Of a stretch of DNA of 64,000 nt, positions 10,702-25,332 are shown in pieces. The notes below the pieces were generated by a model that was given only the letters and a program-made list of their open reading frames with translations, was not told where the DNA came from and ran no database searches. The stretch lies in the IMG/VR virus record IMGVR_UViG_2565956726_000008. One strand, 5' to 3'. Positions within the stretch are counted from its first letter, which is position 1. Every line of letters begins with the position of its first letter. This stretch comes from a virus (lineage: Duplodnaviria > Heunggongvirae > Uroviricota > Caudoviricetes). Position numbers and translations under genes: made by a program.

Positions 10702-10980
10702 ATGGGCGATTATTTAAAAGCGCCGCCGCCACCACGAACAAAAGAGCAAGTATTAAAAGAAGCCCGCGATCAAATCGATCGGGGGCTTTTTTTATGCGGC
10801 ACGGCAGCGGAACGAATGACGAAAAGATTTAGTGACCTGTACGCGAAGCAAATCTGGTTTGACAACTGGCGAGCGAGTTCTTACCCGCTACAGAAAACTG
10901 ATGATATGCAGTGGCCTGAATATGTTGATCCACGAATGCGCAAATATCGCGGGCGTATGGGCCAGGTTATTAACGATTAA
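10702..10980 (+). CDS. hypothetical protein (92 aa)
   Basis: ORF in dense co-directional array; no motif recognised. Confidence 0.4.
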   Translation: MGDYLKAPPPPRTKEQVLKEARDQIDRGLFLCGTAAERMTKRFSDLYAKQIWFDNWRASSYPLQKTDDMQWPEYVDPRMRKYRGRMGQVIND

Positions 10981-10992
10981 TGAGGTATTACC

Positions 10993-11244
10993 ATGACAGC
11001 TACAACATTAAGCGAAAATAACGGGCGCGGTTTTCAGGGGACTGCGGAAACCTCAGACGATGGTGATGTATTTGTCGAATTCGGTGGCGGTAACTATGAA
11101 TTCGAAACGTCGGCGGGCTGGCACGATAAATGGCCTTTCCCGACGCGCAAGGAATTAAGCGATCGAAAAACATTTGGCGAAGATGCCGAACGCCTGGCGA
11201 ATAATAAATGGATGGATAAATTTATTGCGGAGGCTGAAAAATGA
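10993..11244 (+). CDS. hypothetical protein (83 aa)
   Basis: ORF in dense co-directional array. Confidence 0.4.
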   Translation: MTATTLSENNGRGFQGTAETSDDGDVFVEFGGGNYEFETSAGWHDKWPFPTRKELSDRKTFGEDAERLANNKWMDKFIAEAEK

Positions 11245-11354
11245 GTTTTGAAAAAATTGCAGCATTGGCTGCGGCGGTGGCGATCGCGGCGCTATATCTT
11301 AGCTTATCGCTTTATATTACGGTGGCGATCATCAAGCTGATTACAACTATGTGA
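11241..11354 (+). CDS. small membrane peptide (37 aa)
   Basis: ATGA overlap with upstream stop; hydrophobic translation MSFEKIAALAAAVAIAALYLSLSLYITVAIIKLITTM. Confidence 0.35.
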   Translation: MSFEKIAALAAAVAIAALYLSLSLYITVAIIKLITTM

Positions 11355-11361
11355 GGCAATC

Positions 11362-11484
11362 ATGAGAGTCAGTAAGGATATTGTGACGGTCGCGTTTTGC
11401 GTTATTTGTTTCCTGTTTGCGGTTGTGCTTTGTGGCGCACTTGCGGCGGTGATTAGCTTTATTGGTAAGGGGGTGATGTTATGA
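11362..11484 (+). CDS. small membrane peptide (40 aa)
   Basis: Hydrophobic translation MRVSKDIVTVAFCVICFLFAVVLCGALAAVISFIGKGVML; stop overlaps next start. Confidence 0.35.
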   Translation: MRVSKDIVTVAFCVICFLFAVVLCGALAAVISFIGKGVML

Positions 11485-11753
11485 CTCTGTGGGATGCAAA
11501 AGAAAGTGATCTCGTTGTCTTGCCAGCATATCGTAGTGATCTCGGGCTGGTCGTACTGAATAAAACATGTAGCGACATTCAACGCCCGATCCTGGTTAGA
11601 TACTTAGACGGCACGATGATCGAACCGCGTTTCTTCGACAAAGTTGAACTGAAGGCCCGCAATGTTCGCGTTAAGCCTTTCCGGGCTTATGTTGAAAATC
11701 ACTGGCGTAAATTGTTCGCCGGACTGAATGGGATGTTCGGCGTATGGCTATAA
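11481..11753 (+). CDS. hypothetical protein (90 aa)
   Basis: ORF in dense array. Confidence 0.4.
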   Translation: MTLWDAKESDLVVLPAYRSDLGLVVLNKTCSDIQRPILVRYLDGTMIEPRFFDKVELKARNVRVKPFRAYVENHWRKLFAGLNGMFGVWL

Positions 11754-11935
11754 AATTAGTGAAGGTTAAACACCTGAAAGGCGGCGAAAAACTCCGCGCG
11801 TGGTTCGGATATGAATTTATTGCTACTGACTTTTATTTCGGGCCTGGTGGTCAAGTAACAATATTTGATGAAGATTACGACGAGGTGGGGCAATGGCATC
11901 TTGAACAATATGTCGAGGTGTTAAATGAAAATTAA
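11744..11935 (+). CDS. hypothetical protein (63 aa)
   Basis: ORF in dense array. Confidence 0.35.
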   Translation: MAIKLVKVKHLKGGEKLRAWFGYEFIATDFYFGPGGQVTIFDEDYDEVGQWHLEQYVEVLNEN

Positions 11936-12257
11936 ATTCCATAAGGCATATGATAGCGAATCAAACAAGCTATCACTATTTATTGAGTTCGAACGCCGGA
12001 TCATTGTTGTGCCCTGGGCGCGGCGATTCAATGACGCTGGCGGTCGGCGGCAGTTCGCGGTCGATATGCTGTTACGCGGCTGCGGCCTTATGCGTCCGCT
12101 ATCTGATTTAAAACGAATGATGCCGGGATCATTCGGTCAGATTGATGAAATAGAAATAAGCCCGGAAGAACTGAAACGGGAGCGTGATTTATTCCTTTCA
12201 AGCGAAGGAAACCCGTTTAATTCAGAAACCGAAATGAAATGGCATCATCCACTATAA
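11925..12257 (+). CDS. hypothetical protein (110 aa)
   Basis: ORF in dense array. Confidence 0.4.
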   Translation: MKIKFHKAYDSESNKLSLFIEFERRIIVVPWARRFNDAGGRRQFAVDMLLRGCGLMRPLSDLKRMMPGSFGQIDEIEISPEELKRERDLFLSSEGNPFNSETEMKWHHPL

Positions 12258-12268
12258 GGATAAATATC

Positions 12269-12730
12269 ATGAACGACATCAAAACAGCTTATTCACTCGG
12301 CAGCGACGGTATGTTAATCACTCGCTACACTGACGACGCGAGCTTTCACGAAGTGTTAACTAAGGACTATCACGAAGTATTAAAAGATATGAACGCAGGC
12401 GCATATGACGGTGATTTAAATCTGGCGCTACAGGTTGTTGATATTGTGATGGATGCGTCAATCCGCGATTACGTGTCTTTAAGCAGGGAAGAAAAAACAT
12501 CGGTAGCGCGTTATGTATTCTCTCTTACTTTTGTGAAGCGCATGGAGGAAGAATTCGGACGCGTACCAGTGCCGGAAGAGGTTGAACCGCTCGCGTTCGG
12601 AAGTGCTGTTATTTTTCCGTTGAACAAGGATCAGCTTGGTGGTGTTTCACTGCATTCTATGCGCGGCCTGATGAAAAATATCTTTGAGGTTAAGATGTTG
12701 CAGAAATTCATTGAGGAAGGCCACAAATAG
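12269..12730 (+). CDS. hypothetical protein (153 aa)
   Basis: ATG at 12269 with aagga RBS (longer ORF from 12239). Confidence 0.45.
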   Translation: MNDIKTAYSLGSDGMLITRYTDDASFHEVLTKDYHEVLKDMNAGAYDGDLNLALQVVDIVMDASIRDYVSLSREEKTSVARYVFSLTFVKRMEEEFGRVPVPEEVEPLAFGSAVIFPLNKDQLGGVSLHSMRGLMKNIFEVKMLQKFIEEGHK

Positions 12731-12988
12731 GAAGAAGTAAAAGCGCTCATGCCATTGTTTTACGGTGAAATGGTTGGCAATGATATGCGTGCAAATGATT
12801 TCGGCGTACAGGCGGCTATCGCTGTGCTTAATGAGGCACGGGAAAACGCACAGCCAATGCCTGAACAGGGGAAACGTGTACTGCATTAACCGAGTAATTC
12901 CGATCACATAAATATACATTTTGTATTGTGAACGCATATCCGTTTTGTAAGCCGAAATCAAAAGGTTTACGGTGCGGAGGAAGCAAAA

Positions 12989-13207
12989 ATGGAACGCGAA
13001 TTGATGCTTTATTGCGTAGAAGGTGGCGTAGGTCACGATGCCTACGTCGCCGGGAAAGACTATCCAGCCGATGAAGTGCTTTCTAATATGCACTTCAGAG
13101 AAAATGAAAGCCAGGTGTCTGTGTGGAAACGGTGTATTGATGGTATTGAGGTTGTAAGTATCGAACGGTATTTAGGCACGTTTGATTACGGTGTTATTGA
13201 GGCTTAA
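12989..13207 (+). CDS. hypothetical protein (72 aa)
   Basis: ORF with ggagg RBS. Confidence 0.4.
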   Translation: MERELMLYCVEGGVGHDAYVAGKDYPADEVLSNMHFRENESQVSVWKRCIDGIEVVSIERYLGTFDYGVIEA

Positions 13208-13305
13208 TTATGGACGATACATTGTTTTATATGTGCTGTTTCTGGGGTTTTATTGTCTTATGCCTGTTTATCAGGTGGTTTATTGAATACCATATGAGGT
13301 AATGT

Positions 13306-13500
13306 GTGGAACAAGAAACTGATTATCGAATACCTGATGGCCTAAAATTAGTTGGCATTGGTTTCGGGTGTAGATTTGTATCTGACGCAAAAGGAGCGAT
13401 TTATTTAATACGTCTTATTGATGGCGTTCAACATATAAGGCGACTAGGAATTTACATCAAAGCATTCAGAAGGGGTTATTTAAAAACTCATGAAATTTAA
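13306..13500 (+). CDS. hypothetical protein (64 aa)
   Basis: ORF in dense array. Confidence 0.35.
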   Translation: MEQETDYRIPDGLKLVGIGFGCRFVSDAKGAIYLIRLIDGVQHIRRLGIYIKAFRRGYLKTHEI

Positions 13501-13693
13501 ACATTACATGGAATGGAAAATTCCAGAAGCAGCAACAAAGGCAGCGCCAGGAAATTATTCTGGCGTTTATTTTTATATGGATGGCAAATGGTATTTCGGC
13601 AGCAGGCCGGATCACTATTATCAGGAAATATGCAAGCCTCACGTATGGGATATTAAAGAGCGCGTGAAAGGCGGGGTAATTGAGGACGTTTAA
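13490..13693 (+). CDS. hypothetical protein (67 aa)
   Basis: ORF in dense array. Confidence 0.35.
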   Translation: MKFKHYMEWKIPEAATKAAPGNYSGVYFYMDGKWYFGSRPDHYYQEICKPHVWDIKERVKGGVIEDV

Positions 13694-13694
13694 A

Positions 13695-13931
13695 ATGCTT
13701 AAGAGCTTTTTTAACTGGTTGGGGGCGTGGCTTTTGGCTACGCTTTTTGTTTTCCTGGCGGCCCTGACTGTTATCAGTGTTATTATGCTGGGAGCTATGT
13801 TTATTACGTGGTCGCTTCCTGAATTTAACGACATTGGGAATATTCTTTTTGCAGCCCGCGCTTTATTGGCTGTTAGCGCATTCATTGGTTTTTGCTGGAC
13901 TGCCGCGCCGGATTGGACTGACACATGGTGA
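13695..13931 (+). CDS. small membrane protein (78 aa, two predicted TM helices)
   Basis: ATG at 13695 with gagg RBS; hydrophobic stretches WLGAWLLATLFVFLAALTVISVIMLGAMFI and LLAVSAFIGFCW. Confidence 0.4.
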   Translation: MLKSFFNWLGAWLLATLFVFLAALTVISVIMLGAMFITWSLPEFNDIGNILFAARALLAVSAFIGFCWTAAPDWTDTW

Positions 13932-13935
13932 TCCT

Positions 13936-14169
13936 ATGGCCTTATTCAATATGTCAGAGCCGCAATTTAACGCCGTAAAGACTGCCGCCCGCGCCGCGCT
14001 TTCGGCCTGCAAAGCGGAGGTAGAGAAGAACGGCTACAGCGATAAAGCCACGCGGCTGATATTAGATAAGCATTATCGCAAGGTCGCCCCGCTAATCAGT
14101 ATTGAGCGTTTTGTGTGGTTGGTGGGGTATCTGAATAACCGCTGGGGAACAGATCAGGATTATTTCTAA
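13936..14169 (+). CDS. hypothetical protein (77 aa)
   Basis: ATG at 13936 just after upstream stop. Confidence 0.4.
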   Translation: MALFNMSEPQFNAVKTAARAALSACKAEVEKNGYSDKATRLILDKHYRKVAPLISIERFVWLVGYLNNRWGTDQDYF

Positions 14170-14178
14170 GGGGGCGTA

Positions 14179-14718
14179 ATGAAAAATGATTACGGCGGCA
14201 GCCATACGCCGAAAGAAATAAAGGACTTATGGCAAACGCCAAAACCCGTTTTTAGAGGAATGGATCGAGAATTCGAGTTCGTCGCGGATGTGGCGGCAAA
14301 CAAGGCAAACGCATTAATACCGCGATATATAACCGAAGAAATGGACACGCTCCATTATCCGTGGGGAGCGGTGGCGATGCCTGGTGAGTATGTCTGGATG
14401 AATCCGCCATATTCTAATCCGGGGCCATTCGTTGATAAAGCGGCGCTTGAACACAGCCGAAATCATATCGGATGCGTAATGTTATTGCCCGCTGACATTT
14501 CTGTTAGCTGGTTTATGAACGGCGTGGAGACGGCAAACGAATGCCGATTAATCACGCGCGGGCGGCTGGCGTTTATCAATGCTGCAACAGGGAAACCAGT
14601 AAGCGGGAACAATAAGGGGAGCTTGTTCCTGATCTGGCATCCACGATGCAGACATGAATGTATTTTCACGCAGATAACACGTAAAGAGCTATATGCAAGA
14701 GGTGCAGAAAATGAATAA
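14179..14718 (+). CDS. phage Dam-type DNA N6-adenine methyltransferase
   Basis: 179 aa; WQTPKPVF ... FVADVAAN ... VWMNPPYSN (catalytic NPPY motif) typical of small phage Dam methyltransferases. Confidence 0.8.
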   Translation: MKNDYGGSHTPKEIKDLWQTPKPVFRGMDREFEFVADVAANKANALIPRYITEEMDTLHYPWGAVAMPGEYVWMNPPYSNPGPFVDKAALEHSRNHIGCVMLLPADISVSWFMNGVETANECRLITRGRLAFINAATGKPVSGNNKGSLFLIWHPRCRHECIFTQITRKELYARGAENE

Positions 14719-15031
14719 AGCGGCTGAATTGCTGAGACTTGCGGCTGAAACTATCGAGGCAAGAGGGGAGCAAAACGGATACGATCGAAAAGAAGAAAAA
14801 TCAGCGCCAAAAATAGCGGCTATTTTCAACGCTAAGATGAATGCGAATTTAACCCCACTTGATGTATGGGATCTAATGATTTGCCTCAAGGAAGCGCGTT
14901 TAGGGGCTATTCTCGCTAATGGAACTGATCCGCTCGACACTCTTATAGACCTTATTGCTTATAACGCGCTTAAGGCCGAACAGATATTAGCGTATCGGGA
15001 GGAAGAGCTAAATGAAGATGGTGGCAATTGA
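14711..15031 (+). CDS. hypothetical protein (106 aa)
   Basis: ATG at 14711 with gaggtg RBS, 8-nt overlap with methyltransferase gene. Confidence 0.4.
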   Translation: MNKAAELLRLAAETIEARGEQNGYDRKEEKSAPKIAAIFNAKMNANLTPLDVWDLMICLKEARLGAILANGTDPLDTLIDLIAYNALKAEQILAYREEELNEDGGN

Positions 15032-15515
15032 CAGGTTATTAGCCTGCGTTTATGTCGCCGTTTTCGTTATCATCAATCTTATTGTTAACCACTGTGGCCC
15101 GTGGGTAATTCCGATCACCACGGTAGCCGCCGTGTGTGTCAATATGATGATTCGTGATTTTCTGTTATATGACGGCGGCCTTAAATGGTCGGCTACAACA
15201 TGCGCCGCCGCTGGCGCAATCACGGTGCTGATAAATTACGACGCCGGAATGGTGGCGATCGCGTCATTCGTCGCGGTTGTTTCCGGTGCGCTTATTTCTG
15301 GCGGCGTTTACCGGGTTTTACCTGGTGATTTCGATTCTAAACGCTGGCCTGCAAATATAGCGTCCGCCATTGGCGATGCGTTAATTTTCCCAACGCTATC
15401 GTTTATGGCATTCATGCCGGAAATATCAGCTATGCAATTCATCTCAAAAATGGCGGCGGTAACGGTGATCACTATCATCATGCGCCGCTACTTTACGTTC
15501 GAGGGTAGGAAATGA
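15012..15515 (+). CDS. polytopic inner-membrane protein (about 5 TM helices), function unknown
   Basis: 167 aa, strongly hydrophobic; weak by-eye resemblance to YhhQ/DUF165-type transporters, not verifiable here. Confidence 0.5.
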   Translation: MKMVAIDRLLACVYVAVFVIINLIVNHCGPWVIPITTVAAVCVNMMIRDFLLYDGGLKWSATTCAAAGAITVLINYDAGMVAIASFVAVVSGALISGGVYRVLPGDFDSKRWPANIASAIGDALIFPTLSFMAFMPEISAMQFISKMAAVTVITIIMRRYFTFEGRK

Positions 15516-16276
15516 GTGGGCTTAGAAATTGGGTGGTGTGGTCGCTGTACGACGGCAGCGGATACGCCGTTAAAGATTGGGCCGACGCTGGTTATAAATG
15601 CTATTGCTTCAACTATGATGGCGCTAATCACGGCGATTATGAAGGCGTCAAAATCATTCATCCGAACATTGAGTATATCAACGTATGGATTGACAGCCAT
15701 TTCCTGGTAATGTTCTCCCCTGAATTGTCTGTTTATCCAGATCCTGACATTATCCTGGGCTTTCCTCCGTGCGACGATCTTGCGGTGTCCGGCGCTCGCT
15801 GGTTTGCTGATAAGCGGAAAAAAGAACCTTACTTCCAGCAGAAGGCGGCATACAACGCAAAACTGGTAGAAACGCTTGCTGATATGTACCACGTCCCGTG
15901 GATGGTGGAAAATCCGGTAGGTGCGCTGTCAACGTTATGGCGCAAACCTGATTTTATCTTCAACCCGTGCGCTTACGGTGGCTACCTGCCTGAAGACGAC
16001 AAACACCCTGCTTTCCCTGAATACATAGCTGCCCGCGACGCATACACGAAGAAAACTTGTATCTGGTGCGGGAATGGATTTAAGCAGCCGCTATTCCGGC
16101 CTGTACCTATGCCGGATGAATGGGAAGACAGCAAACAGCACGCGAAGTTAGGAGGAAAGTCGAAACGCACTAAGATGATCCGCTCACTAACGCCGCGCGG
16201 CTTTGCCCGTGCTGTATTCTTGGCTAACGACCGGGCCATCACTCGTACTACGCTTAACCGCATTTTACCGGACTAA
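15512..16276 (+). CDS. C5-cytosine methyltransferase-like protein (atypical motifs)
   Basis: 254 aa; candidate motif I SLYDGSGYA, motif IV GFPPCDD (Cys retained, Gln replaced), motif VI ENPVG; short for a C5-MTase. Confidence 0.45.
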   Translation: MSGLRNWVVWSLYDGSGYAVKDWADAGYKCYCFNYDGANHGDYEGVKIIHPNIEYINVWIDSHFLVMFSPELSVYPDPDIILGFPPCDDLAVSGARWFADKRKKEPYFQQKAAYNAKLVETLADMYHVPWMVENPVGALSTLWRKPDFIFNPCAYGGYLPEDDKHPAFPEYIAARDAYTKKTCIWCGNGFKQPLFRPVPMPDEWEDSKQHAKLGGKSKRTKMIRSLTPRGFARAVFLANDRAITRTTLNRILPD

Positions 16277-16278
16277 AG

Positions 16279-16357
16279 TTTACAAAATGGCATCATTGCG
16301 TGATGCGGATCACATAATGGCGCTTTTTGCCTTGTTTGGGGGTATCCATTTTGTATA
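16279..16357. repeat. Intergenic motif pair TTTACAAAATGG / CCATTTTGTATA flanking GTGA-N6-TCACA palindrome
   Basis: tttacaaaatggcat (16279-16293), cgtgatgcggatcaca (16299-16314), atccattttgtatac (16343-16357). Confidence 0.7.
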
Positions 16358-16435
16358 CTTCAAGCAAACAAAATGCTCTTTAAAAATCCGGCAGCGCTGA
16401 AATGCGTAGAAATCACCTGAAAAGGAGAGAGCATT

Positions 16436-16612
16436 ATGTCTTTTGATGATTACCAATGGCATGACGACTATGAACGAGAAAGCGTCATGCGTGCAATGTG
16501 CAATGTATGCAGCACGAAAAAAGGAGAATGTAACGAGTACAACGAATGTGTAGATCACTCGCTAAGGGCCGGACACGCCGAAAGGCTGAACGAAACAGAG
16601 AATCAAAAATAA
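16436..16612 (+). CDS. small Cys-rich protein (58 aa)
   Basis: ATG with aaaggagaga RBS; eight Cys (CNVC...ECNEYNEC). Confidence 0.35.
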   Translation: MSFDDYQWHDDYERESVMRAMCNVCSTKKGECNEYNECVDHSLRAGHAERLNETENQK

Positions 16613-16626
16613 TTGGGGTGGTTTTT

Positions 16627-17232
16627 ATGCAAAACCCTAAGAAACCAATAAGACGCCGTTGCAAATGCTGCGGCGTTTTTTTTGAGCCTAAATATCACAA
16701 TCAAACGTGGTGCAGCGACGAATGCCTGGAAGAACTGAAATTTGACCAGTTATGCCGCGACCGTGAGAAGGCTATGAAGGCTATGGAACGGAAGAAACGC
16801 CGTGATAGCCAGCGGGAAGAACGCAACCGGAAGCGGAAGCAGTTAAATCCGCGTAGCTATTGGTTAAAGCAGGCACAAGCGGTATTTAATGCCTATATCC
16901 GCGAACGTGACGCGCGGTTGCCGTGCATATCCTGCGGGACTTACTACGGTGAGCAATGCGGATACGATGCGGGGCATTACAGGACGGTCGCCGCCGCCGG
17001 ACACCTTCGCTTCAATGAAGATAACGTCCATAAACAATGTAGGCACTGCAATCAGACATTAGACGGAAACATACAAGCCTATCGCCCAGCACTGATTCGA
17101 AAAATTGGCCTCGCCAGGGTGGAAGCGCTGGAGAACAACAATGATACGCATAAATGGACGATCGCAGAATGTAAGGAGCTAATAAACATCTATCAGGCAA
17201 AATTGGACGCCTTAAGGAGAAAGGCAGCATGA
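16627..17232 (+). CDS. ninG: NinG/Rap-family recombination protein
   Basis: 201 aa from ATG 16627; close by-eye match to lambda NinG (W.SDEC, PRSYW.KQAQ.AVNA.IRERD, LPCISCGT, DAGHYRT.AAA..LRFNE.N.HKQC..CN). Confidence 0.85.
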   Translation: MQNPKKPIRRRCKCCGVFFEPKYHNQTWCSDECLEELKFDQLCRDREKAMKAMERKKRRDSQREERNRKRKQLNPRSYWLKQAQAVFNAYIRERDARLPCISCGTYYGEQCGYDAGHYRTVAAAGHLRFNEDNVHKQCRHCNQTLDGNIQAYRPALIRKIGLARVEALENNNDTHKWTIAECKELINIYQAKLDALRRKAA

Positions 17233-17657: not shown

Positions 17658-17869
17658 ATGTACTCAATCAAGCGTCGATTTTTTTTACTGAAGGTAAAAA
17701 ATATTCAGGTTTTATAAAGCATGGGTGCTTTGCTTTCATTCTACAAGACGATCTTGTATCTGATTTCGACGACGCCGACGCATGGCGATTAGTCCAGTAT
17801 TTCCCGTCAAAAAATGAGTATTTTTTGCAGGGGAATTTTAAAACTCGGTTTAAGGTGGTAGAGAAATGA
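17648..17869 (+). CDS. hypothetical protein (73 aa, TTG start)
   Basis: ORF with ggagac upstream; only a non-ATG start is available. Confidence 0.3.
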   Translation: MLLNVLNQASIFFTEGKKYSGFIKHGCFAFILQDDLVSDFDDADAWRLVQYFPSKNEYFLQGNFKTRFKVVEK

Positions 17870-18770: not shown

Positions 18771-19228
18771 TGGATAAACTGGAAATAAACGATCAGTTTG
18801 CTGTTATCTTGTTCGAGGATAAAACAGGCGGTGCATGGTGTAAGAAAGTCACTGGTGCTGAAGCGCGTTTAATATTGGGAATGGCAAGCGCATTAAACGA
18901 TGGCGAATTGCCCGCCGTACCTATTGAGCCTGTTCATATTTATGGGCGGGTAACGACAATGAAGCCTAAATTAAAAGAACATCTTTTTGCAAAACTTGTT
19001 AATGACCTGACGTTATCAGCGCGGTTGTGTGGTGATACACAACAATTACTGGCGTGGATAGCAAGGGATTTGAAAAAATATATTGAGCCTGGCGGGCCTG
19101 GTGACGAAATGACGGTTGATAAGGCCATCGAGCGCCGGACGGCTGAATGGTCAGTAAGTAATACCGGATTAACCGGATACATCGAAGGCTATAACGACTG
19201 TTTACAGGATCATAGCGATGGCAAATAA
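18767..19228 (+). CDS. hypothetical protein (153 aa)
   Basis: ORF overlapping upstream stop. Confidence 0.45.
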   Translation: MMDKLEINDQFAVILFEDKTGGAWCKKVTGAEARLILGMASALNDGELPAVPIEPVHIYGRVTTMKPKLKEHLFAKLVNDLTLSARLCGDTQQLLAWIARDLKKYIEPGGPGDEMTVDKAIERRTAEWSVSNTGLTGYIEGYNDCLQDHSDGK

Positions 19229-19517
19229 ACACTTACATTTGAATTTAAAAGGTGAATACTTCCACGCCATCCGGGCGGGAAAGAAGGTGGAAGAATACCG
19301 GCTTTACAATGAATACTGGCGTAAACGCCTGGAGGGGCGGGAGTACACAAGATTAATCATTAAATGGGGTTATCCATCGGATGATGAGAAAGACCGGATT
19401 ATCGTATTGCCTTACATGGGGTACGAAATCAAGTTGATTCAACATCCACTATTCGGCCCTGATCCGGTGAAGGTATTCGCAATAAAGTGTGATATTTACT
19501 GGCAATACAGATTTTAA
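19218..19517 (+). CDS. hypothetical protein, possibly ASCH/PUA-like (99 aa)
   Basis: ORF; weak by-eye resemblance only. Confidence 0.35.
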   Translation: MANKHLHLNLKGEYFHAIRAGKKVEEYRLYNEYWRKRLEGREYTRLIIKWGYPSDDEKDRIIVLPYMGYEIKLIQHPLFGPDPVKVFAIKCDIYWQYRF

Positions 19518-19530
19518 GGTTTGTTGAGCA

Positions 19531-19746
19531 ATGAAAAAAGCTGGCCTGTCAATTAGCCGCGTATTGTGCGGTGATGAAAACGAGATCCGCATAGAAATTA
19601 AATTTAGCACTGGTAAAGAGATAATTCTTTACACGACACCTGAAAACCTGACGCTGGCGCTTACTGGTAAATCTGAAACGCCGTGCGACGTCCGGTTGCG
19701 CAATATTGAGATCAAGGAAATAGGAAGGGTGAAAAATGAAAAGTAA
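19531..19746 (+). CDS. hypothetical protein (71 aa)
   Basis: ORF in dense array. Confidence 0.35.
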   Translation: MKKAGLSISRVLCGDENEIRIEIKFSTGKEIILYTTPENLTLALTGKSETPCDVRLRNIEIKEIGRVKNEK

Positions 19747-19951
19747 CCGTAAACGCCTGGTAAGGGCGTATGACAAAGCGTTAAAGGCTTTTGATGATCT
19801 GCGACACAATAAGCGCCAGCGCCGCAAATGGGCGCGTATGCTTGTTTATAAGTGGCATTATTTTTATGCTTTTATGGAAAGTGCGCCGCTATTAACACAA
19901 GAACAAGCCGACGAAGTAGCTAACGATAACGTTTATTATATGACGTGGTGA
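19736..19951 (+). CDS. hypothetical protein (71 aa)
   Basis: ORF in dense array. Confidence 0.35.
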   Translation: MKSNRKRLVRAYDKALKAFDDLRHNKRQRRKWARMLVYKWHYFYAFMESAPLLTQEQADEVANDNVYYMTW

Positions 19952-19955
19952 TAAT

Positions 19956-20321
19956 ATGCAAATAATCATTGATTACCTTTGCCACGCTGCAAATACGCTT
20001 TTCGGTTTTTATCAGCAACCATTCCTGAAAGAATGGGACGAAATGCTTAATGACATCCTCGACAAAGGGTTAATAATGGAATTCGGGGAGCTAACAATCA
20101 AATTTAATTACGAAGGCAAAGAATATGACATATGGGTAGGAAACAGATGGTATGCATACGGGCATATTTATTCAATTGGCGGTAAATACATTAAACGAAG
20201 TCAGGAATTTAGACCGCGCTTCCGCACAATGCGACGACTGCATGACCTGCATATGAAGATATTTGGAGATCAGGAGGCACGGGAATTATTCAAAATTTAC
20301 GGGGGTAAATCATGGAGCTAA
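19956..20321 (+). CDS. hypothetical protein (121 aa)
   Basis: ORF in dense array. Confidence 0.4.
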   Translation: MQIIIDYLCHAANTLFGFYQQPFLKEWDEMLNDILDKGLIMEFGELTIKFNYEGKEYDIWVGNRWYAYGHIYSIGGKYIKRSQEFRPRFRTMRRLHDLHMKIFGDQEARELFKIYGGKSWS

Positions 20322-20542
20322 AAATCTGGCAGGCTATCGACGTAGTTGATAATGAATTAACAATGTTTGCCACTGACGGAAAGCGCGTGGTTATCGCTAC
20401 ATGGACGCATAACCATGATGATATTGTTTTTCGTCGCAAGGCTGCGGAGTGGCTTTTCTCTGACAACGGCTACACGATGAATATCATGCAGCTTTCCAGA
20501 ATGAAGGATGAAAAGCTGGTTGATAGTTACACAACTGCATAG
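20312..20542 (+). CDS. hypothetical small protein (76 aa)
   Basis: ORF in dense array. Confidence 0.35.
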   Translation: MELKIWQAIDVVDNELTMFATDGKRVVIATWTHNHDDIVFRRKAAEWLFSDNGYTMNIMQLSRMKDEKLVDSYTTA

Positions 20543-20552
20543 TGGGGCAAAT

Positions 20553-20786
20553 ATGTGTATCTATGAACACAAGCGGGATAAAACCCGCTTTTTTGTTCGT
20601 GCTGGCGTGGCTTACCAGTATCACGACTGCGGATATATCGAGGCGCTTGCTTACGATCTGGACTTCGAACAAGAAAAAGAATGGTTCGATTTCAAAATTT
20701 ACCGGAAGCGTAAACCGACGCGCGACGAGCGACACGCTATCCGGGACTTTTTAATCAGCATAGACCGCTGGGAGACAGAGGAATGA
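20553..20786 (+). CDS. hypothetical protein (77 aa)
   Basis: ATG at 20553 after upstream stop. Confidence 0.35.
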   Translation: MCIYEHKRDKTRFFVRAGVAYQYHDCGYIEALAYDLDFEQEKEWFDFKIYRKRKPTRDERHAIRDFLISIDRWETEE

Positions 20787-21070
20787 GAGCGAAGAAAACA
20801 GCAGATCAGAAAGCGTTAGTTATCACTACAACTGATGTGTCGTTATTCACGAAGGGTGAAGAAATAGATCTTAAATTACTTTTCGGCATGTTTGAGCCAC
20901 ACGAAAAGCCGTGGTTCGTGCATGAAGACAAACAGGGAAATATGCGCGTAGTAGTGCCGGACAAAAACAGCGACATATTTTTTGCTATTCCAGACCCGTT
21001 ACATGACGGTGAATTGCTGGCGGTATTGTTGATCGCTGATGCTGTTACTTATAAAGGGAAAGAAATATGA
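20783..21070 (+). CDS. hypothetical protein (95 aa)
   Basis: ORF in dense array. Confidence 0.4.
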   Translation: MRAKKTADQKALVITTTDVSLFTKGEEIDLKLLFGMFEPHEKPWFVHEDKQGNMRVVVPDKNSDIFFAIPDPLHDGELLAVLLIADAVTYKGKEI

Positions 21071-21294
21071 AAGTTAAATTCTTGCACAATCACGGCTACC
21101 CATCATTAAAACGCGTGGTAGGGGAAACGGTAGACGTTGTTCATTCTGATGATGTGACCTGCGTCATTTTGGGTAAAGACCTTATCGCTCACGGTGCTGA
21201 TGATTACTACATTAACCCGGCGTGGTCATATACGTTTAGCCTGGGCGACTTCGTAGGCGATAAGGGGCGCGGCTTGCAAGTAGTCGAGGGTTAA
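21067..21294 (+). CDS. hypothetical small protein (75 aa)
   Basis: ORF in dense array. Confidence 0.35.
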   Translation: MKVKFLHNHGYPSLKRVVGETVDVVHSDDVTCVILGKDLIAHGADDYYINPAWSYTFSLGDFVGDKGRGLQVVEG

Positions 21295-21298
21295 TATC

Positions 21299-21514
21299 AT
21301 GGACGTTTACGAAGATTTATACCTTCAAACAAATACCAGCACTTTTTATTTTTTGAAAAACGGCGTCGTATATCGCAGCGATGACGGGGTAATAATGAAA
21401 GAGTGGCTATTTAAACGCAAAGACCTACTTGATGACCTGGTTTTTGCCGGGATATTCCGTAAACGTCCGGCTAACCTGGAAGAAGAAATGCTGATCGACG
21501 AGGTATTAAAATGA
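21299..21514 (+). CDS. hypothetical small protein (71 aa)
   Basis: ORF in dense array. Confidence 0.35.
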   Translation: MDVYEDLYLQTNTSTFYFLKNGVVYRSDDGVIMKEWLFKRKDLLDDLVFAGIFRKRPANLEEEMLIDEVLK

Positions 21515-21762
21515 AAATCAAGGTAAGTTATTTCAGGGCGAAAGATAAGGCCACTGGACGGATGATGGCTATTCTGGTTAACGAAGCGAATTATATGTTC
21601 TTCCTTCAACCGTGGTGCATTGCCGATCTTAATGACGATTATCGCCGCCACGCTGCGCGTAGTGCTGTAGGCATGAAAGGCTGGCAGCCGCGCGACATGG
21701 AAAACTATAGCGAGTGGAAATTGGTGGTAAAATACACGGTCGATTATAAAGGGGTTTTCTGA
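21511..21762 (+). CDS. hypothetical protein (83 aa)
   Basis: ORF in dense array. Confidence 0.4.
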   Translation: MKIKVSYFRAKDKATGRMMAILVNEANYMFFLQPWCIADLNDDYRRHAARSAVGMKGWQPRDMENYSEWKLVVKYTVDYKGVF

Positions 21763-21986
21763 TGTTTGTAAAATGTATAAAGTCTCGTTTCCCTAATCTT
21801 TTTGTGGTTGATGAGATTTACGACATAGAAACGCTAATAAGCAGAACTAACGATATTCAGTACATTTATGATGAAGATGGCGATCCGTGGTTTTTTTATA
21901 ACGATCTCAATGGTAGCGGATTCGTTGATGGCGTTGGCGGTAATGGTGTGCCAGTTGCGCTATTTATAAATGCAAATAAGGAATGA
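21762..21986 (+). CDS. small protein, paralog family (G-x-I-Y ... DD-x-G-x-W)
   Basis: 74 aa; EIYDIE...YIYDEDGDPWFFY shared pattern. Confidence 0.45.
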   Translation: MFVKCIKSRFPNLFVVDEIYDIETLISRTNDIQYIYDEDGDPWFFYNDLNGSGFVDGVGGNGVPVALFINANKE

Positions 21987-22198
21987 ATATCATGTATGTT
22001 AGATGCACTGAATCAAAATCATCATGCTTTGAGGTTGGCGGAATATATACCGTAGCTCACCTGACTGGTGATGAACTTAACACCCAATACATTAAAGACG
22101 ACCACGGAGACGCGTGGCGCTATTGGGATTGTTACGCACGGGGACACGTTACCAGTCATTTCGGTATGGAAGCGATCGTGCGTTTTGTTAAATGGTAA
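21983..22198 (+). CDS. small protein, paralog family
   Basis: 71 aa; GGIYTVAHL...YIKDDHGDAWRYW. Confidence 0.45.
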   Translation: MNIMYVRCTESKSSCFEVGGIYTVAHLTGDELNTQYIKDDHGDAWRYWDCYARGHVTSHFGMEAIVRFVKW

Positions 22199-22207
22199 GG
22201 GGTAAGC

Positions 22208-22465
22208 ATGAAGCATTTATATTTTGAGGTATTGCAGACGCGAGACCGCAATATTTTTGAAGAAGGGAAGATCTATTGCGGCGTTCAACTCCACGGCGCA
22301 CCGGGCGGTGATGGTGCAATGGCGATAACTGGCGATGATGATAAGGTTTATTTCGCTTATGTTAGCCATATCAATAACGCCGCTGGTCTGTATATTTATC
22401 GCATAGTGCATGATTTCCGTGAGATCGCGGAGTTTTGCGCCCGCGAAGGCAGTAAACCGGAATAA
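22208..22465 (+). CDS. small protein, paralog family
   Basis: 85 aa; GKIYCGVQL...ITGDDDKVYFAY. Confidence 0.45.
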   Translation: MKHLYFEVLQTRDRNIFEEGKIYCGVQLHGAPGGDGAMAITGDDDKVYFAYVSHINNAAGLYIYRIVHDFREIAEFCAREGSKPE

Positions 22466-22475
22466 GTGAGGGGTT

Positions 22476-22715
22476 ATGAACCGGAACCATAGATACCAGT
22501 GCACATACTCACTATGCAGCGCGTTTTTTAAGAATGGCAAGATCTACGAAGTCGGCGCGGCATTGGTTGATGCAAAGGATCAGGAATATATTCACGCCAT
22601 TACTGACGACCAGGGCCGGTTATGGCGCTTTTATAAAATGGGGTACGGTACGGCGCTTGTTTATGCGCGTAATAGTAGTGGTGCTTTTGCTGCATTTTCA
22701 TATGTCGGGGCGTAA
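22476..22715 (+). CDS. small protein, paralog family
   Basis: 79 aa; GKIYEVGAAL...ITDDQGRLWRFY. Confidence 0.45.
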   Translation: MNRNHRYQCTYSLCSAFFKNGKIYEVGAALVDAKDQEYIHAITDDQGRLWRFYKMGYGTALVYARNSSGAFAAFSYVGA

Positions 22716-22717
22716 AA

Positions 22718-22933
22718 ATGATTTTAACGTGTCACGGATCTGATCTTGATTGTTTCGAAGACGGTTGTCAGTACGAAGCGGAAAAGCCAGGCGGATTACC
22801 GAAAAAACCGTTTTTAGTCGTTACAGACACTTACGGTCACTTATGGTATGCAGCGCCCAGCAAGGCGCGTGGCTGGTGGCTGATTCAGAATGAAGATCGC
22901 GAGGTTGTAGTGGCCCTCAGGCAGGACGAATAA
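22718..22933 (+). CDS. small protein, paralog family (divergent)
   Basis: 71 aa; FLVVTDTYGHLWYA. Confidence 0.4.
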   Translation: MILTCHGSDLDCFEDGCQYEAEKPGGLPKKPFLVVTDTYGHLWYAAPSKARGWWLIQNEDREVVVALRQDE

Positions 22934-22956
22934 AAAGCGTGATCTACCCCGCAAAG

Positions 22957-22999
22957 TTTACAAAATGGCATTGTTTCAGCAGTGCCATTTTGTTATAAA
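22957..22999. repeat. Intergenic palindrome TTTACAAAATGGCA-N12-TGCCATTTTGTTATAAA
   Basis: Near-perfect inverted repeat in the 100-bp gap between small-ORF arrays. Confidence 0.7.
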
Positions 23000-23034
23000 G
23001 AAGCTGAAGAGAGAACGATGCGGAGGGTAGAAAA

Positions 23035-23313
23035 ATGAAACGCTGGATTAACAAAGAAGTCGAATCTCGCTTAAACGCATTTTGGGAGATGGTGGAGAAA
23101 GAAGACCCAGCACACGCTGCAAGCCCTTACCTGAACAACATCGAATATCACTACATTGCAGCAAACAACGCGGAGTTCGAAGAAGAAGGTGGAGCCGACA
23201 AGTTCGCACAAAGCAACGCATTCAACAACGCAAACGAAATGATGATGGCAGTCATCGAACAGGCAGAGGAAGACTACGAATGCAAATCACTTGAATTTGC
23301 ACGCATGGCATAA
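23035..23313 (+). CDS. hypothetical acidic protein (92 aa)
   Basis: ORF with ggag RBS downstream of palindrome. Confidence 0.4.
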   Translation: MKRWINKEVESRLNAFWEMVEKEDPAHAASPYLNNIEYHYIAANNAEFEEEGGADKFAQSNAFNNANEMMMAVIEQAEEDYECKSLEFARMA

Positions 23314-23322
23314 GGGGGAACC

Positions 23323-23463
23323 ATGAACGCTAACGCTAAATATCCGGCCTGGGTTTTCGAACTATACGCCCGCTACTTTGAAGTATTGGCACCAGGTGAA
23401 GAAGCATTAAGCATTGACGAATACGCGGAGTGCTTAGGATTTAGAGGAGGAGAAGAAGAATAA
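23323..23463 (+). CDS. small hypothetical protein (46 aa)
   Basis: ATG with aaggggga RBS. Confidence 0.3.
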   Translation: MNANAKYPAWVFELYARYFEVLAPGEEALSIDEYAECLGFRGGEEE

Positions 23464-23502
23464 ACACGGGGCAGAATGGCCCCATCAAACGGAGTAGAAA
23501 TT

Positions 23503-23757
23503 ATGGTTGTGATCAGACTATGGCGCGGAGTTAGTAGGCTTGATGGCACATACAGCCGTGTAATTGAGGTTGTTAACAATAGTAGGTTTTATGAACTGGA
23601 ATACAGCGAAAAAAGGGAGAATGAATATTTGAGCGAATCGACCCCTATGTGGTGCAAAGTGGCTGGCCTTTCTTCACTTATGCGTTGCGGGTTTTATACA
23701 GATTATAACACGCTAACAGATGCCGAACTGGTGGCAACTCTTTACGGAGGAGAATAA
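23503..23757 (+). CDS. hypothetical protein (84 aa)
   Basis: ATG at 23503 with ggag RBS. Confidence 0.4.
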   Translation: MVVIRLWRGVSRLDGTYSRVIEVVNNSRFYELEYSEKRENEYLSESTPMWCKVAGLSSLMRCGFYTDYNTLTDAELVATLYGGE

Positions 23758-23760
23758 ACA

Positions 23761-24084
23761 ATGACTAAATTTATCAGTGTTAAAGTTTTCCGTGGCACTA
23801 TTCCAGAAAGTGAAAAATACGGCGAATTTAGTGGAATGCCTGGCGCATGTTTCCGTGTAGCTACAGAAGACGATAACCGTGTTAAATGTTTCCACATATC
23901 AGAACCGCCTTTCGATCCAGAACATCTTAAACATCCAGGTAAAATTAAAACGCTTATTTTCGCTTTTCTGACGATTAATTCTTACCCTGATCTTGAGGTT
24001 GATTTAGTCGGCGCGGAACTGGTCGCAGAATACAAAATAACCCCGGCAGAAAGCGGAGATTCTGAAATTGAGCGCATCAAATAA
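23761..24084 (+). CDS. hypothetical protein (107 aa)
   Basis: ORF in dense array. Confidence 0.4.
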   Translation: MTKFISVKVFRGTIPESEKYGEFSGMPGACFRVATEDDNRVKCFHISEPPFDPEHLKHPGKIKTLIFAFLTINSYPDLEVDLVGAELVAEYKITPAESGDSEIERIK

Positions 24085-24319
24085 ACCTTACAAAATCCGG
24101 TGTAAAGTGGAATATCCTGGCTTTACGACTGGATGCGAATACCTGGGCCATATGGGGTATGGCCCGTTCGGCGAGTTAGGAATGAATACGATTGACGACG
24201 ACGGCGACAACAGGACGCTTGATCTTGATAGCGATGATTTCGAATACATCCCGCCAGTCACTTACCGCGTCGTCGATGATTTCCTGGCTGAACATGAAGA
24301 CGAGGATGATGATGATTGA
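24068..24319 (+). CDS. hypothetical acidic protein (83 aa)
   Basis: ORF; acidic C-terminus EDEDDDD. Confidence 0.4.
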   Translation: MSASNKPYKIRCKVEYPGFTTGCEYLGHMGYGPFGELGMNTIDDDGDNRTLDLDSDDFEYIPPVTYRVVDDFLAEHEDEDDDD

Positions 24320-24512
24320 ATGCCTTATCGCTGTGATTGTTTTGCTTTATATCGCTGGCGCGATCCTGATGTCATGTTTTATTAAGTTTAGCGGCGCTGA
24401 ACCTGGTGGCCTTGAGATTCCTTTTTGGCCTGTGACTGTGTTTATCGCTTTCTTCGATGCAACGCTAGTGCAGATTAAGCGAGCCATTAAGGAGCGTAAA
24501 AATGGGAAATAG
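24306..24512 (+). CDS. small membrane protein (about 68 aa, 2 TM)
   Basis: Hydrophobic translation IECLIAVIVLLYIAGAILMSCFI ... WPVTVFIAFF. Confidence 0.4.
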   Translation: MMMIECLIAVIVLLYIAGAILMSCFIKFSGAEPGGLEIPFWPVTVFIAFFDATLVQIKRAIKERKNGK

Positions 24513-24726
24513 CGACCATCAATATGACGGCGTTTATCAGTCATTGGTGTCACGCGCTTATTATCGCCTTGAAGGTGAACACGTAATGATGCGATCACGC
24601 CAGTTTGAACTGTGGCATGAAACGGTTTTACCTGTGACAGCGAAAGAAGTTATCACGATGTTTAATCACGGACATTGGAGCAAGATTGGCGATATTAAGT
24701 TCAGGATGTTTAAAGAGGGCGATTAA
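24502..24726 (+). CDS. small protein, paralog family (divergent)
   Basis: 74 aa. Confidence 0.35.
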   Translation: MGNSDHQYDGVYQSLVSRAYYRLEGEHVMMRSRQFELWHETVLPVTAKEVITMFNHGHWSKIGDIKFRMFKEGD

Positions 24727-24909
24727 ATGATTGAAGATGGTATATACGCCGTGAACCTCATTGATGAAATGTTTTACCGCGTGGAGGGTAATGATATTCG
24801 TATCAGTATCGATGGTGGCGAGTGGAAAGAGCCATTCATGGATATGACGCGGGAAATAATTGAAATCATGCTTTATAACGGCGACGTGGTGAAGGTTAGC
24901 GACCTGTGA
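24727..24909 (+). CDS. small protein, paralog family
   Basis: 60 aa; DGIYAVNLIDEMFYRVEGNDIRI. Confidence 0.4.
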   Translation: MIEDGIYAVNLIDEMFYRVEGNDIRISIDGGEWKEPFMDMTREIIEIMLYNGDVVKVSDL

Positions 24910-25082
24910 ACGAGATCGAAGACGGCATCTATTTGCATAAGGTATTTAACATCGTCTATTTACTTAAAGGTAATAAGGTGATGATAAGACCTGATGACGA
25001 TCCACATTGGGAATCAAGCGGCATGGATCGCGAACACATGCAAACATTGCTTGATAATGGCCTGATATACAGAAAGCAGTAA
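24906..25082 (+). CDS. small protein, paralog family (GTG start)
   Basis: 58 aa; EDGIYLHKVF ... PDDDPHWE. Confidence 0.35.
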   Translation: MNEIEDGIYLHKVFNIVYLLKGNKVMIRPDDDPHWESSGMDREHMQTLLDNGLIYRKQ

Positions 25083-25104
25083 AGCCGTATTTGTTGGGGG
25101 TAAT

Positions 25105-25332
25105 ATGGAAGAAAGGGTTTTGCTGTCATCAATATGGCATCGGTTCGGAAGTGAAAAAGGTTACTCACCTGCTTGCTGGCTGGATAGTAAAAGCGGAAAG
25201 GAGTATCAAAACGAGTGCGAATTTAGAAGGGAGTGGCGAGGCGGTAAGGAAGTGCAAGGATATTTTGCACCAAAACACGTTGCCGTCAAATACAAAGAAT
25301 GGCTTGTTCGTTTGCTTGGACCTTATCGTTAA
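25105..25332 (+). CDS. hypothetical protein (75 aa)
   Basis: ORF with RBS; last gene before lysis cassette. Confidence 0.4.
   Translation: MEERVLLSSIWHRFGSEKGYSPACWLDSKSGKEYQNECEFRREWRGGKEVQGYFAPKHVAVKYKEWLVRLLGPYR

Follow-up and report, generated by a model that had tools for sequence, protein, structure and literature searches.

What kind of locus is formed by 51 small open reading frames (ORFs) that are tiled one after another between the ssb gene and the lysis genes of a temperate Escherichia coli phage? The question is raised by positions 10702-25332 of the IMG/VR virus record IMGVR_UViG_2565956726_000008 (Caudoviricetes), of which a stretch of 64,000 nucleotides (nt) was analyzed; this whole stretch is referred to as the window. 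An original prediction, made from the letters of the window, placed the array in a lambdoid phage, regarded it as unusually large, and suggested that it is a reservoir of host-takeover or anti-defence proteins. Comparison with related phages leads to a different picture. The block is probably the early, rightward ‘accessory’ arm of an mEpimmI-group prophage, made up of a core of approximately 25 genes running from abc2 to Q and a mosaic of 26 genes running from Q to the holin, and we infer that these are transcribed as a single operon.

The array is flanked by genes for ERF and SSB upstream (9641-10686, with SSB, PF00436, at 10282-10686) and by an HP1-type holin downstream (PF16080, 25440-25640), the holin, lysozyme, and spanin genes together spanning 25440-26590. 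A listing of ORFs on both strands, and their tiling on the + strand, gave 51 small ORFs that fill 10702-25332 from ssb to the module of terminator t5 and the holin, all of them on the + strand, with lengths of 30-254 amino acids (aa), a median of 77 aa, and 39/51 shorter than 100 aa. Overlaps occur at 27 of the 50 junctions, including eleven 4-nt overlaps of the ATGA type, and a further 18 junctions are spaced by 0-15 nt. The coding density is 96.4 %, leaving 3.6 % of the block non-coding, and gaps longer than 50 nt are found at three places: 12890-12988 (99 nt), 16277-16435 (159 nt), and 22934-23034 (101 nt). The description of some 50 small, overlapping ORFs between ssb and the lysis cassette is therefore accurate, including its boundaries: the ORFs are densely packed and translationally coupled, and a lambda-type nin region is far smaller. 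The positions that had been given for NinG (16627-17232), RusA (17229-17657), and Q (18048-18770) are also right, and the stretch between the Q stop and the holin start, estimated earlier as 6.6 kb of small genes, is 6,670 nt long and contains 26 ORFs. Both of the gaps named earlier (16277-16435 and 22934-23034) hold a recurrent motif, as had been noted; the third gap, at 12890-12988, also contains it and had been missed.

The identity of the phage was established from its closest matches. Megablast against phage records matched only Escherichia phages MagusPhagus, mEp010, mEp044, mEp554, mEp013, mEp021, and mEp515, which cover 61-80 % of the block at 84-88 % identity and in the same gene order; mEp010, mEp013, mEp044, mEp554, and MagusPhagus cover 72-80 % of it at 86-88 % identity, and mEp021 covers 61 %. 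These seven phages, together with 38 E. coli prophages, make up the mEpimmI set, described as temperate, Nus-dependent siphophages that are classed as non-lambdoid and proposed as a new family (Negrete-Mendez et al., Front Microbiol 2025, PMC11893012). The group has a CI-like repressor, Rep021, an N-like protein, Gp17, a Q-like protein, and 50 core genes; its accessory genes concentrate in a ‘regulation cluster’, and its members integrate near ydaM/abgT/mppA in E. coli (PMC11893012). In the window, a CI-like repressor of the Rep021 type lies at 8053-8700 and is 96 % identical to mEp021 gp15 over 198 aa. Rep (96 %), Gp17 (94 %), and Q (92 %) are all close to their mEp021 counterparts, and Ipe and the holin also fall within 92-97 %. 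The order rep, gp17, erf, ssb, abc2, followed by ipe, dam, a dcm-like gene, nutR2, ninG, rusA, Q, small genes, t5, and holin, is that of the group, and terminators and nut sites correspond one to one. Judged by this homology, the window phage belongs to the mEpimmI (mEp021-like) group and is not lambdoid, as had first been thought. Since the group is described as non-lambdoid, the nin region of lambda is the wrong yardstick for its size.

The relatives assembled for further comparison comprised 52 loci, six from annotated records and 46 from IMG/VR contigs retrieved with the Q protein. In 48 relatives the interval from ssb to holin measures 10.5-15.3 kb, with a median of 13.6 kb, and within it the part from Q to the holin varies between 2.0 and 7.1 kb. 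At 14.75 kb the block is therefore not ‘unusually large’ for its kind: such a large array is the canonical, syntenic layout of a described group, and this copy lies near the upper end of the range. It differs from its relatives, besides being at the large end, in an extra cassette (17648-17869), a split phrog_1515 gene, and a degenerate terminator t2. The block is present in 35 of 5,426 complete E. coli genomes, always in the chromosome; the best match is strain 2017C-4173W12 (97 % coverage, 96 % identity), and no identical record was found. A scan of species-representative genomes with the Q protein found no relative.

The two-part structure of the block emerges from a matrix of presence and absence of the array ORFs across the 48 relatives. 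From abc2 (10702) to Q (18770), nearly every gene occurs in at least 46/48, and this part is the core; its exceptions are 11241-11354 (34/48), the C5-methylase-like gene at 15512-16276 (41/48), and the cassette at 17648-17869 (5/48). The half after Q consists of a variable stretch (18767-19951), a core island on the + strand (19956-21762), and a second variable stretch (21762-25332) with genes found in 11-45 of the 48. Within the island, the genes starting at 19956, 20312, 20553, 21067, 21299, and 21511 are in 47-48/48 relatives, and 20783-21070 is a variable insert. The segment directly after Q (18767-19228) is present in 25/48 and belongs to the most variable DNA of the block. The comparison with related prophages that had been proposed as a way of finding variable cassettes thus located them in the distal half. 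Summed over the relatives, the distinct DNA amounts to 12.1 kb between ssb and Q and 11.9 kb between Q and holin, and both values saturate after ∼25 genomes; what had been called a ‘reservoir’ thus amounts to a restricted repertoire of cassettes undergoing reshuffling.

Few of the products can be named. Pfam gave no significant match for 44/51 ORFs, and ∼40 also lack a functional name in PHROGs; searches of Pfam with all 51 ORFs and of NCBIfam with ten of them returned nothing besides NinG, Dam, Q, RusA, DUF6378, and DUF7274. Matches to the Pfam families KilA-N, PAP_RNA-bind, SPRING1, and ASCH were below threshold and were not used. Genes of a host-directed or anti-defence type are indeed present, namely those for an Abc2-like protein, two proteins of DNA methyltransferase type, and an Ipe homologue, but a reservoir of anti-defence proteins is a hypothesis; the ∼40 unnamed proteins are most plausibly host-interaction or counter-defence factors. 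The possibility raised at the outset that the block is a conserved canonical region of a described group with known functions is right as to the conserved region and the described group, but not as to known functions.

Landmarks of antitermination provide the basis for a model of expression. One caveat is that the relatives are close (∼85-96 % DNA identity), and conservation of non-coding DNA among them is suggestive, not decisive, unless it involves patterns of half-sites and spacers or compensatory changes. A PR-like promoter, TTGACT-N17-TATATT, is assigned at 8824-8852 (+ strand) from its position downstream of the Rep gene and terminator t1, with a copy of the recurrent motif just upstream (8810-8822). 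It is followed by nut-like boxA sites at 8894 and 9107, and then by the gene for the homologue of the N-like antiterminator Gp17 (9201-9491, + strand), which is 94 % identical to the mEp021 protein and has R17, R19, R20, and R24. Gp17 is described as an N-like early antiterminator that acts at nutL, nutR1, and nutR2, and in which these four arginines are conserved (PMC11893012). Within the second gap of the array, nutR2 has the boxA TGCTCTTTAAAAATC at 16374-16388, identical to the boxA of nutL (7889, − strand), and a boxB-like hairpin ending near 16402, a position as in PMC11893012. The terminators annotated in mEp021 map to 8706-8723 (t1, after the repressor gene), ∼11259-11275 (t2), 13543-13567 (t3), 16290-16323 (t4), and 25397-25415 (t5), and t1, t2, and t5 were experimentally demonstrated in mEp021 (as reported in PMC11893012). 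As a separate observation, the nut-like site at 9107-9145 has a boxA, CGCTCATTAACAA, that matches the rrn/lambda consensus better than does the boxA at 8894 and is followed by a hairpin, GCCGC-TGGAAGT-GCGGC.

Two further elements are absent from this set or extend it. An intrinsic-terminator-like hairpin, AAGCGGGATAAAACCCGCTTTTTT, lies at 20571-20596 (+ strand) inside the core gene 20553-20786. Alignment of ∼48 relatives shows that it is almost invariant even at synonymous sites, and mEp010 carries a compensatory change in it (GCGGG/CCCGC to GCGCG/CGCGC); neither the mEp021 nor the mEp010 record annotates it. The idea that it belongs with a promoter in a PR'/tR'-like unit at 20460-20596 was rejected, the promoter-like hexamers not being conserved and the terminator hairpin alone being so. 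The second element is a module on the + strand ahead of the holin (25333-25439), recognized by its conservation: TAAAAT (25364-25369), AACAAT (25377-25382), a hairpin ACAAT-GCGAA-ATTGT, and the intrinsic terminator t5 (25397-25419 when the module is delimited). Approximately 75 nt ahead of the holin are nearly invariant in all relatives, whichever cassette precedes them. AACAAT sits 8 nt past TAAAAT and by analogy resembles the −10-like pause element of lambda PR', and the GCGAA loop resembles boxB of nutL. The module may be a Q-dependent late promoter located 2-7 kb from the Q gene, an idea held loosely because the −35 region is not conserved.

Taken together with the mEp021 experiments cited in PMC11893012, these sequence features suggest the following sequence of events. 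Transcription would start at the PR-like promoter downstream of the repressor gene and run rightward as a long, delayed-early unit. Gp17 would make the transcript resistant to terminators at nutR1, and again at nutR2 in the second gap, so that neither the internal terminators t2-t4 nor the hairpin at 20571 would stop it. At the strong terminator t5, ahead of the lysis genes, further progress of the transcript would presumably require the Q-type antiterminator. The small proteins would accordingly be delayed-early products, made before lysis, and those with names would act on host recombination, restriction, and the processing of phage DNA. We infer from the same material the single operon, its timing, and the host-directed role of its unnamed products. 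In this model the genes between Q and holin are upstream of the point that Q controls, which is the opposite of the arrangement of stx genes.

Several observations weigh against so simple an early operon. Promoter-like modules are conserved in all three gaps, and the array may in consequence be several transcription units. The phenotype of Ipe is reported in lysogens, which implies some expression independent of PR. The protein encoded at 21299-21514 is the homologue of gp41, whose presence in virions would not be expected if its gene were purely early, and the t2 hairpin is degenerate in the window, with its T-run lost. Lastly, besides the Abc2-like protein and the methyltransferases, no ORF of the array matches a known anti-defence protein.

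The first two of these points lead to the recurrent motif and to the gaps. The motif is 13 nt long, GTWTACAAAATGG (core CCATTTTGT), and has 22 matches with at most two mismatches in the whole window, compared with 4.3 expected; of the copies with 0-1 mismatch, 11/12 are outside ORFs of at least 90 aa. Copies are spread throughout the prophage, at 3959, 7967, 8810, 16278, 16346(−), 22956, 22985(−), 39595, 39624(−), 42212(−), 42603(−), and 44196(−), almost always in intergenic DNA and often as inverted pairs. Read on the opposite strand, the motif corresponds to the spacer and −10 (CCRTTTTG-TA...) of promoter-like sites pointing at the next gene, and it may mark a phage-wide family of promoters or operators. 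The element forms a PL-like promoter upstream of nutL (7967), also precedes genes of the tail region (39624, 42603, 44196), and is conserved among relatives in all three gaps of the array. Readings of its + orientation as a sigma-54 promoter, or as a plain sigma-70 promoter with TTTACA as the −35, were discarded for wrong spacing and the lack of a −10. Two reverse-strand genes within the tail cluster, 38559-39548 and 43665-44114, are flanked by motif copies (the palindromic pair 39595/39624 and the single copy 44196) and are probably the lipoprotein/superinfection-exclusion morons described for the group.

Alignments of the gaps reveal a shared architecture: a palindrome resembling a binding site of CRP, TGTGA-N6-TCACA, a promoter-like site TTGTKW-N16/17-TAWAMW, and a predicted transcript start ∼60 nt downstream of the centre of the palindrome. 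In the first gap (12890-12988), the CRP-like palindrome (12893-12908) is degenerate in the window, motif copies occupy 12916-12928 and 12940-12952, and the promoter-like site is TTGTGA-N16-TAAGCC, the second hexamer being TAAACT in relatives. The second gap (16277-16435) contains a motif pair, 16278-16290 (+) and 16346-16358 (−), the predicted t4 (16290-16323), a CRP-like site at 16299-16314, and the promoter-like site TTGTTT-N16-TATACT at 16332-16359. In the third gap (22934-23034), a degenerate CRP-like site (22938-22953) is followed by a palindromic motif pair, 22956-22968 and 22985-22997, and by TTGTTT-N17-TATAAA at 22971-22999; the palindrome folds as a 19-bp hairpin (z −6.2), and in relatives the module stays 74-76 nt from whichever gene or cassette comes next. 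Half-sites of the CRP-like palindromes are kept among relatives while the N6 spacer varies, and many relatives have a perfect AAATGTGATCTGTATCACA in the third gap. Four CRP-like sites with at most one mismatch (8012-8027, 16299-16314, 44277-44292, and 51521-51536) are all intergenic and beside motif copies.

These modules support a second model, either a rival or a complement to the single operon, which we regard as possible and put forward tentatively. The array would be composed of four segments, 10702-12889, 12989-16276, 16436-22933, and 23035-25332, each after the first having its own phage-specific promoter of a type defined by a TTGTKW −35, a CCRTTTTG spacer, a TAWAMW −10, and a CRP-like palindrome near −60. 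This would allow parts of the array, for instance ipe and dam, to be active in the lysogen or to respond to catabolite control, as morons do. A single architecture is common to the three gaps and is kept in 39-48 relatives with TGTGA and TCACA conserved and N6 free, and the fixed distance of 74-76 nt between the module of the third gap and the following gene fits the same view. In the second gap, only 9 nt separate the predicted start from the boxA of nutR2 that follows it, a layout to be expected of a promoter and nut site forming a unit, and the element recurs as the PL-like promoter upstream of nutL and ahead of reverse-strand and moron-like genes of the tail region. The adjacency of the window's four best CRP-like sites to motif copies, and the phenotype of Ipe in lysogens (PMC11893012), are also in its favour. 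However, CRP-like matches as a whole are not enriched across the window (22 compared with 27.7 expected), the −35 hexamers are weak, and a generic promoter scan did not list the gap sites. Furthermore, the CRP-like sites of the first and third gaps and the −10 of the first are degenerate in the window, and the element could instead be an operator or an RNA hairpin, the third gap folding with z −6.2.

The single early operon has also to be set against a model of late expression. In Shiga toxin (Stx) phages, stx, transfer RNA (tRNA) genes, and morons are located downstream of PR' and tR', between Q and S, and the original prediction had drawn attention to the equivalent position of the distal small genes. 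The resemblance is one of accessory DNA between Q and holin whose content varies among relatives. If it extended to regulation, the 6.7 kb from Q to holin would be part of a Q-dependent late operon, in the position of stx or morons, and expressed late with the lysis genes. Its location between Q and holin agrees with this, the conserved terminator at 20571-20596 within the segment would need antitermination, and a homologue of the product of 21299-21514 is reported in virions (PMC11893012). On the other side, no gap, promoter, or terminator, and no excess of promoter-like sites, was found after Q, whose stop overlaps the next start; there is no conserved non-coding module there, and 18767-19228 is itself present in 25/48 relatives. 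Promoter-like matches within the segment lack conservation, and shuffled sequence yields more of them; moreover, the sole universally conserved −10-like and terminator module is at the far end, by the holin. Pfam, Rfam, and tRNA scans found no toxin genes, tRNA genes, or Rfam RNA. The Stx analogy is therefore weak: unlike in Stx phages, no PR'/tR'-like module follows Q and the conserved terminator module, with t5, stands directly before the holin. Its content sets the block apart from an Stx-type late moron locus, its regulation probably does so too, and late expression of the segment is considered improbable.

The early accessory arm that we favour can be placed more precisely by comparison with other early regions. 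In lambda, the nin region (ren/ninA-ninI) occupies ∼3 kb between P and Q. The block shares with it short, overlapping, N-antiterminated, delayed-early ORFs upstream of Q, a NinG/Rap protein, a RusA-type resolvase, and a NinF-like ORF. In contrast with the nin region, it is ∼5 times larger and extends 6.7 kb past Q; its helicase and replication genes are on the − strand, left of the repressor, and the array follows erf and ssb; and nutR2, an extra nut site, is present together with three regulatory gaps inside the array. By analogy, the block would work like an expanded lambda nin region, yet it fails two features that define one: the position relative to replication genes, and an end at Q with an adjacent late promoter and terminator, the conserved terminator module of the window being 6.6 kb beyond Q. 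Dense arrays of small early proteins are also found in virulent phages, such as the class I genes of T7, the pre-early genes of T5, and the early ORFs of T4, some of which disable host nucleases or restriction. The likeness is in the density of small early proteins, but these are phages of a different type, their clusters have no homology to the block, and they are not organized around N/Q antitermination.

All of these interpretations presuppose that the ORFs are genes. Selection was assessed for each ORF as the ratio of non-synonymous to synonymous substitution rates (dN/dS, Nei-Gojobori), in the called frame and, for comparison, in each of the other two, using two sets of alignments: orthologues defined by tblastn, and alignments made purely at the DNA level. 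With both sets, in-frame dN/dS is 0.04-0.42 for 49/51 ORFs, compared with ∼0.6-7 in the other two frames. Only 11362-11484, a hydrophobic mini-ORF of 40 aa, and 21762-21986 are weak in this test, and the latter has few divergent orthologues, yet is clearly a member of a paralogue family. A 4-mer resembling a Shine-Dalgarno sequence precedes 46/51 starts, compared with 25 % of random positions; 44/51 ORFs match a PHROG family; and both families that were modelled gave folded AlphaFold models. The original prediction had allowed that most of the ORFs might not be translated; with 49/51 under frame-specific purifying selection, a mostly untranslated array is, on such sequence measures, very unlikely. 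The suggestion that gene calling has produced many of the short ORFs spuriously, from prophage DNA that is non-coding or in decay, can draw on the weak signal of those two ORFs, on the curated annotation of mEp021, in which the counterpart of 11241-11484 is left non-coding, and on a core gene broken by a stop codon in the window, but the frame-specific selection persists in protein-independent alignments, the Shine-Dalgarno-like sites precede nearly all starts, one of the two folded families reaches a predicted local distance difference test (pLDDT) score of 95.7, and just 3.6 % of the block is non-coding, so that it deserves almost no credence. At 11241-11484 itself there are two hydrophobic mini-ORFs (37 and 40 aa) where the mEp021 record has terminator t2; the first has a dN/dS of 0.16, a clear sign of purifying selection, and the second is without it.

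Comparison of the 51 ORFs with one another, by profile-sequence and profile-profile (hhalign) searches, identified three families of paralogues. Family A consists of five tandem paralogues of 71-85 aa on the + strand at 21762-22933 (starting at 21762, 21983, 22208, 22476, and 22718), with a sixth copy at 17648-17869; hhalign probabilities are 64-96 %. Its copy number ranges from 0 to 6 in relatives, and the window, with 6, has the most. In a search of 5.8 billion proteins, the named matches were all from E. coli or phage mEp013, none having a Pfam domain or a functional name. The predicted fold of Family A (one AlphaFold model, of moderate confidence) is a six-stranded beta-barrel with the topology of Gp54 of phage Bas11 (PDB 9AXB), and a Foldseek search of viral models found this fold in many uncharacterised small proteins of enterobacterial siphophages. 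Gp54 is a non-essential protein of 66 aa, a six-stranded beta-barrel whose topology is ‘very rare in nature’ (Zhang et al., Nature 2024, PMC11578894). Direct binding of Gp54 activates the CapRel(SJ46) toxin-antitoxin defence, and the authors speculate that the protein may inhibit another defence (PMC11578894). The profile of Family A did not retrieve Gp54 (9AXB) from PDB sequences even at E values up to 10, and because there is no detectable sequence similarity the link is a predicted fold relationship, not demonstrated homology. The two also differ in setting: Gp54 is encoded by a single gene of a virulent, T1-like phage, and Family A by as many as 6 diverged genes arranged in tandem in a temperate phage.

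Family B is a group of three tandem paralogues of 58-74 aa on the + strand at 24502-25082 (starting at 24502, 24727, and 24906), with hhalign probabilities of 96-97 % for adjacent copies and 56 % for 24502 compared with 24906. Relatives have 0-3 copies, and the 3 of the window are the top count, shared with five relatives. Its model (pLDDT 95.7) has no structural relative in the PDB, and the same search of 5.8 billion proteins returned 111 clusters at 90 % identity, in which the named matches are all from E. coli and have no Pfam domain or functional name. The third family is formed by 11925-12257 and 20312-20542, which share an N-terminal domain (92 %).

A broader model combines these families with the gap modules. 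The block would be a regulated, modular counter-defence locus, in which the element CCRTTTTGTAWAC, shared by the three gaps, PL, and several moron promoters elsewhere, defines a prophage-wide regulon (at least 10 sites in the window) through which parts of the array could be expressed in the lysogen under the control of cyclic AMP (cAMP)-CRP and/or the repressor, and in which Families A and B are diversifying paralogues that neutralise or decoy different sensors of host immunity. Each of the three array gaps pairs the element with a CRP-like site, located ∼60 nt upstream of where the transcript is predicted to start, and three copies elsewhere also have a CRP-like match nearby. Taken as a whole, we consider this combination unlikely.

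With regard to significance, GenBank and the 2025 paper already contain the block, including how large it is and which genes it carries; the paper remarks only on the concentration of accessory genes there. Taken by itself, the block is commonplace in a phage group published in that year, and it overturns nothing. Apparently undescribed in the literature searched are the map of core and mosaic, the selection test for each ORF, the two tandem arrays of paralogues, and the prediction of a Gp54-like fold, as well as the promoter-like/CRP-like gap module, the conserved internal terminator, and the separation of Q from the t5 module. The ∼40 small proteins without assigned function that are under purifying selection are a set of candidates in the early arm of a tractable temperate coliphage; mEp phages grow on K-12. 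The presence and absence of cassettes across 48 relatives is natural variation that can be set against the defence repertoires of hosts. To our knowledge, Bas11 Gp54 is the only member of its fold with a known interaction, that of triggering CapRel, and Family A, as a multi-copy, apparent fold relative of this trigger, may offer a concrete lead. Finally, the CRP-like promoter modules and the separation of Q from the terminator raise the question of how N/Q circuits are wired outside lambdoid phages.

The genes of the core that can be named begin with an Abc2-like anti-RecBCD protein (10702-10980, + strand; phrog_656, E 1e-29), the first gene of the array, which is in 48/48 relatives. At 12239-12889 (+ strand), a stop codon interrupts a core gene of phrog_1515 that encodes ∼206 aa in relatives, as a single gene of 621 nt. 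The two resulting ORFs, of 163 and 46 aa (12239-12730 and 12749-12889), match positions 4-151 and 160-203 of that PHROG, and this copy of the gene is probably a pseudogene. Next are the homologue of Ipe, the inducer of pleiotropic effects (13936-14169, + strand; 95 % identical to mEp021 gp29), which gives a haemolytic phenotype in mEp021 lysogens (cited in PMC11893012), and a Dam-type N6-adenine DNA methyltransferase (14179-14718, + strand; PF05869, E 2e-51). A membrane protein starting at 15012 (+ strand) has five hydrophobic segments by a simple hydropathy count, its mEp021 homologue being annotated with six. The protein encoded at 15512-16276 (+ strand) is like a C5-cytosine methyltransferase (PHROG 757) and has FxGxG-like, PC, and ENP(V) motifs, with no match in Pfam or NCBIfam. 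NinG and RusA, the junction-resolving nucleases assigned by profile matches, together occupy 16627-17657 (+ strand), and the Q-type antiterminator, on the same strand, has CxxC zinc-finger repeats and matches PF03589 at E 1e-29 (102.5 bits against a cut-off of 26.7). Further named products are a NinF-like and a DUF6378 protein, both of the core, and a DUF7274 protein. In the core island, the product of 21299-21514 is 93 % identical to mEp021 gp41, found in purified virions by mass spectrometry (PMC11893012).

Some smaller features of the window can be added. RusA has 142 aa, compared with ∼133-135 aa in relatives, and the sporadic Family A cassette at 17648-17869, which has a TTG start, is inserted at the 3' end of its gene with an overlap of 10 nt. 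Two small proteins of the distal variable part, encoded at 24068-24319 and 23035-23313, are very acidic, with net charges of −16 and −11 and isoelectric points of 4.1-4.4. Such a composition is typical of DNA-mimic anti-restriction proteins, and no similarity of these two to known proteins of that kind was found. Neither the left att site nor the integrase is contained in the window. Its right end, ∼55000-64000, is E. coli chromosome, comprising the ttcA-zntB-dbpA region and Rac-prophage genes, recE and intR among them; the prophage thus adjoins the Rac region, consistent with the ydaM/abgT/mppA area of integration.

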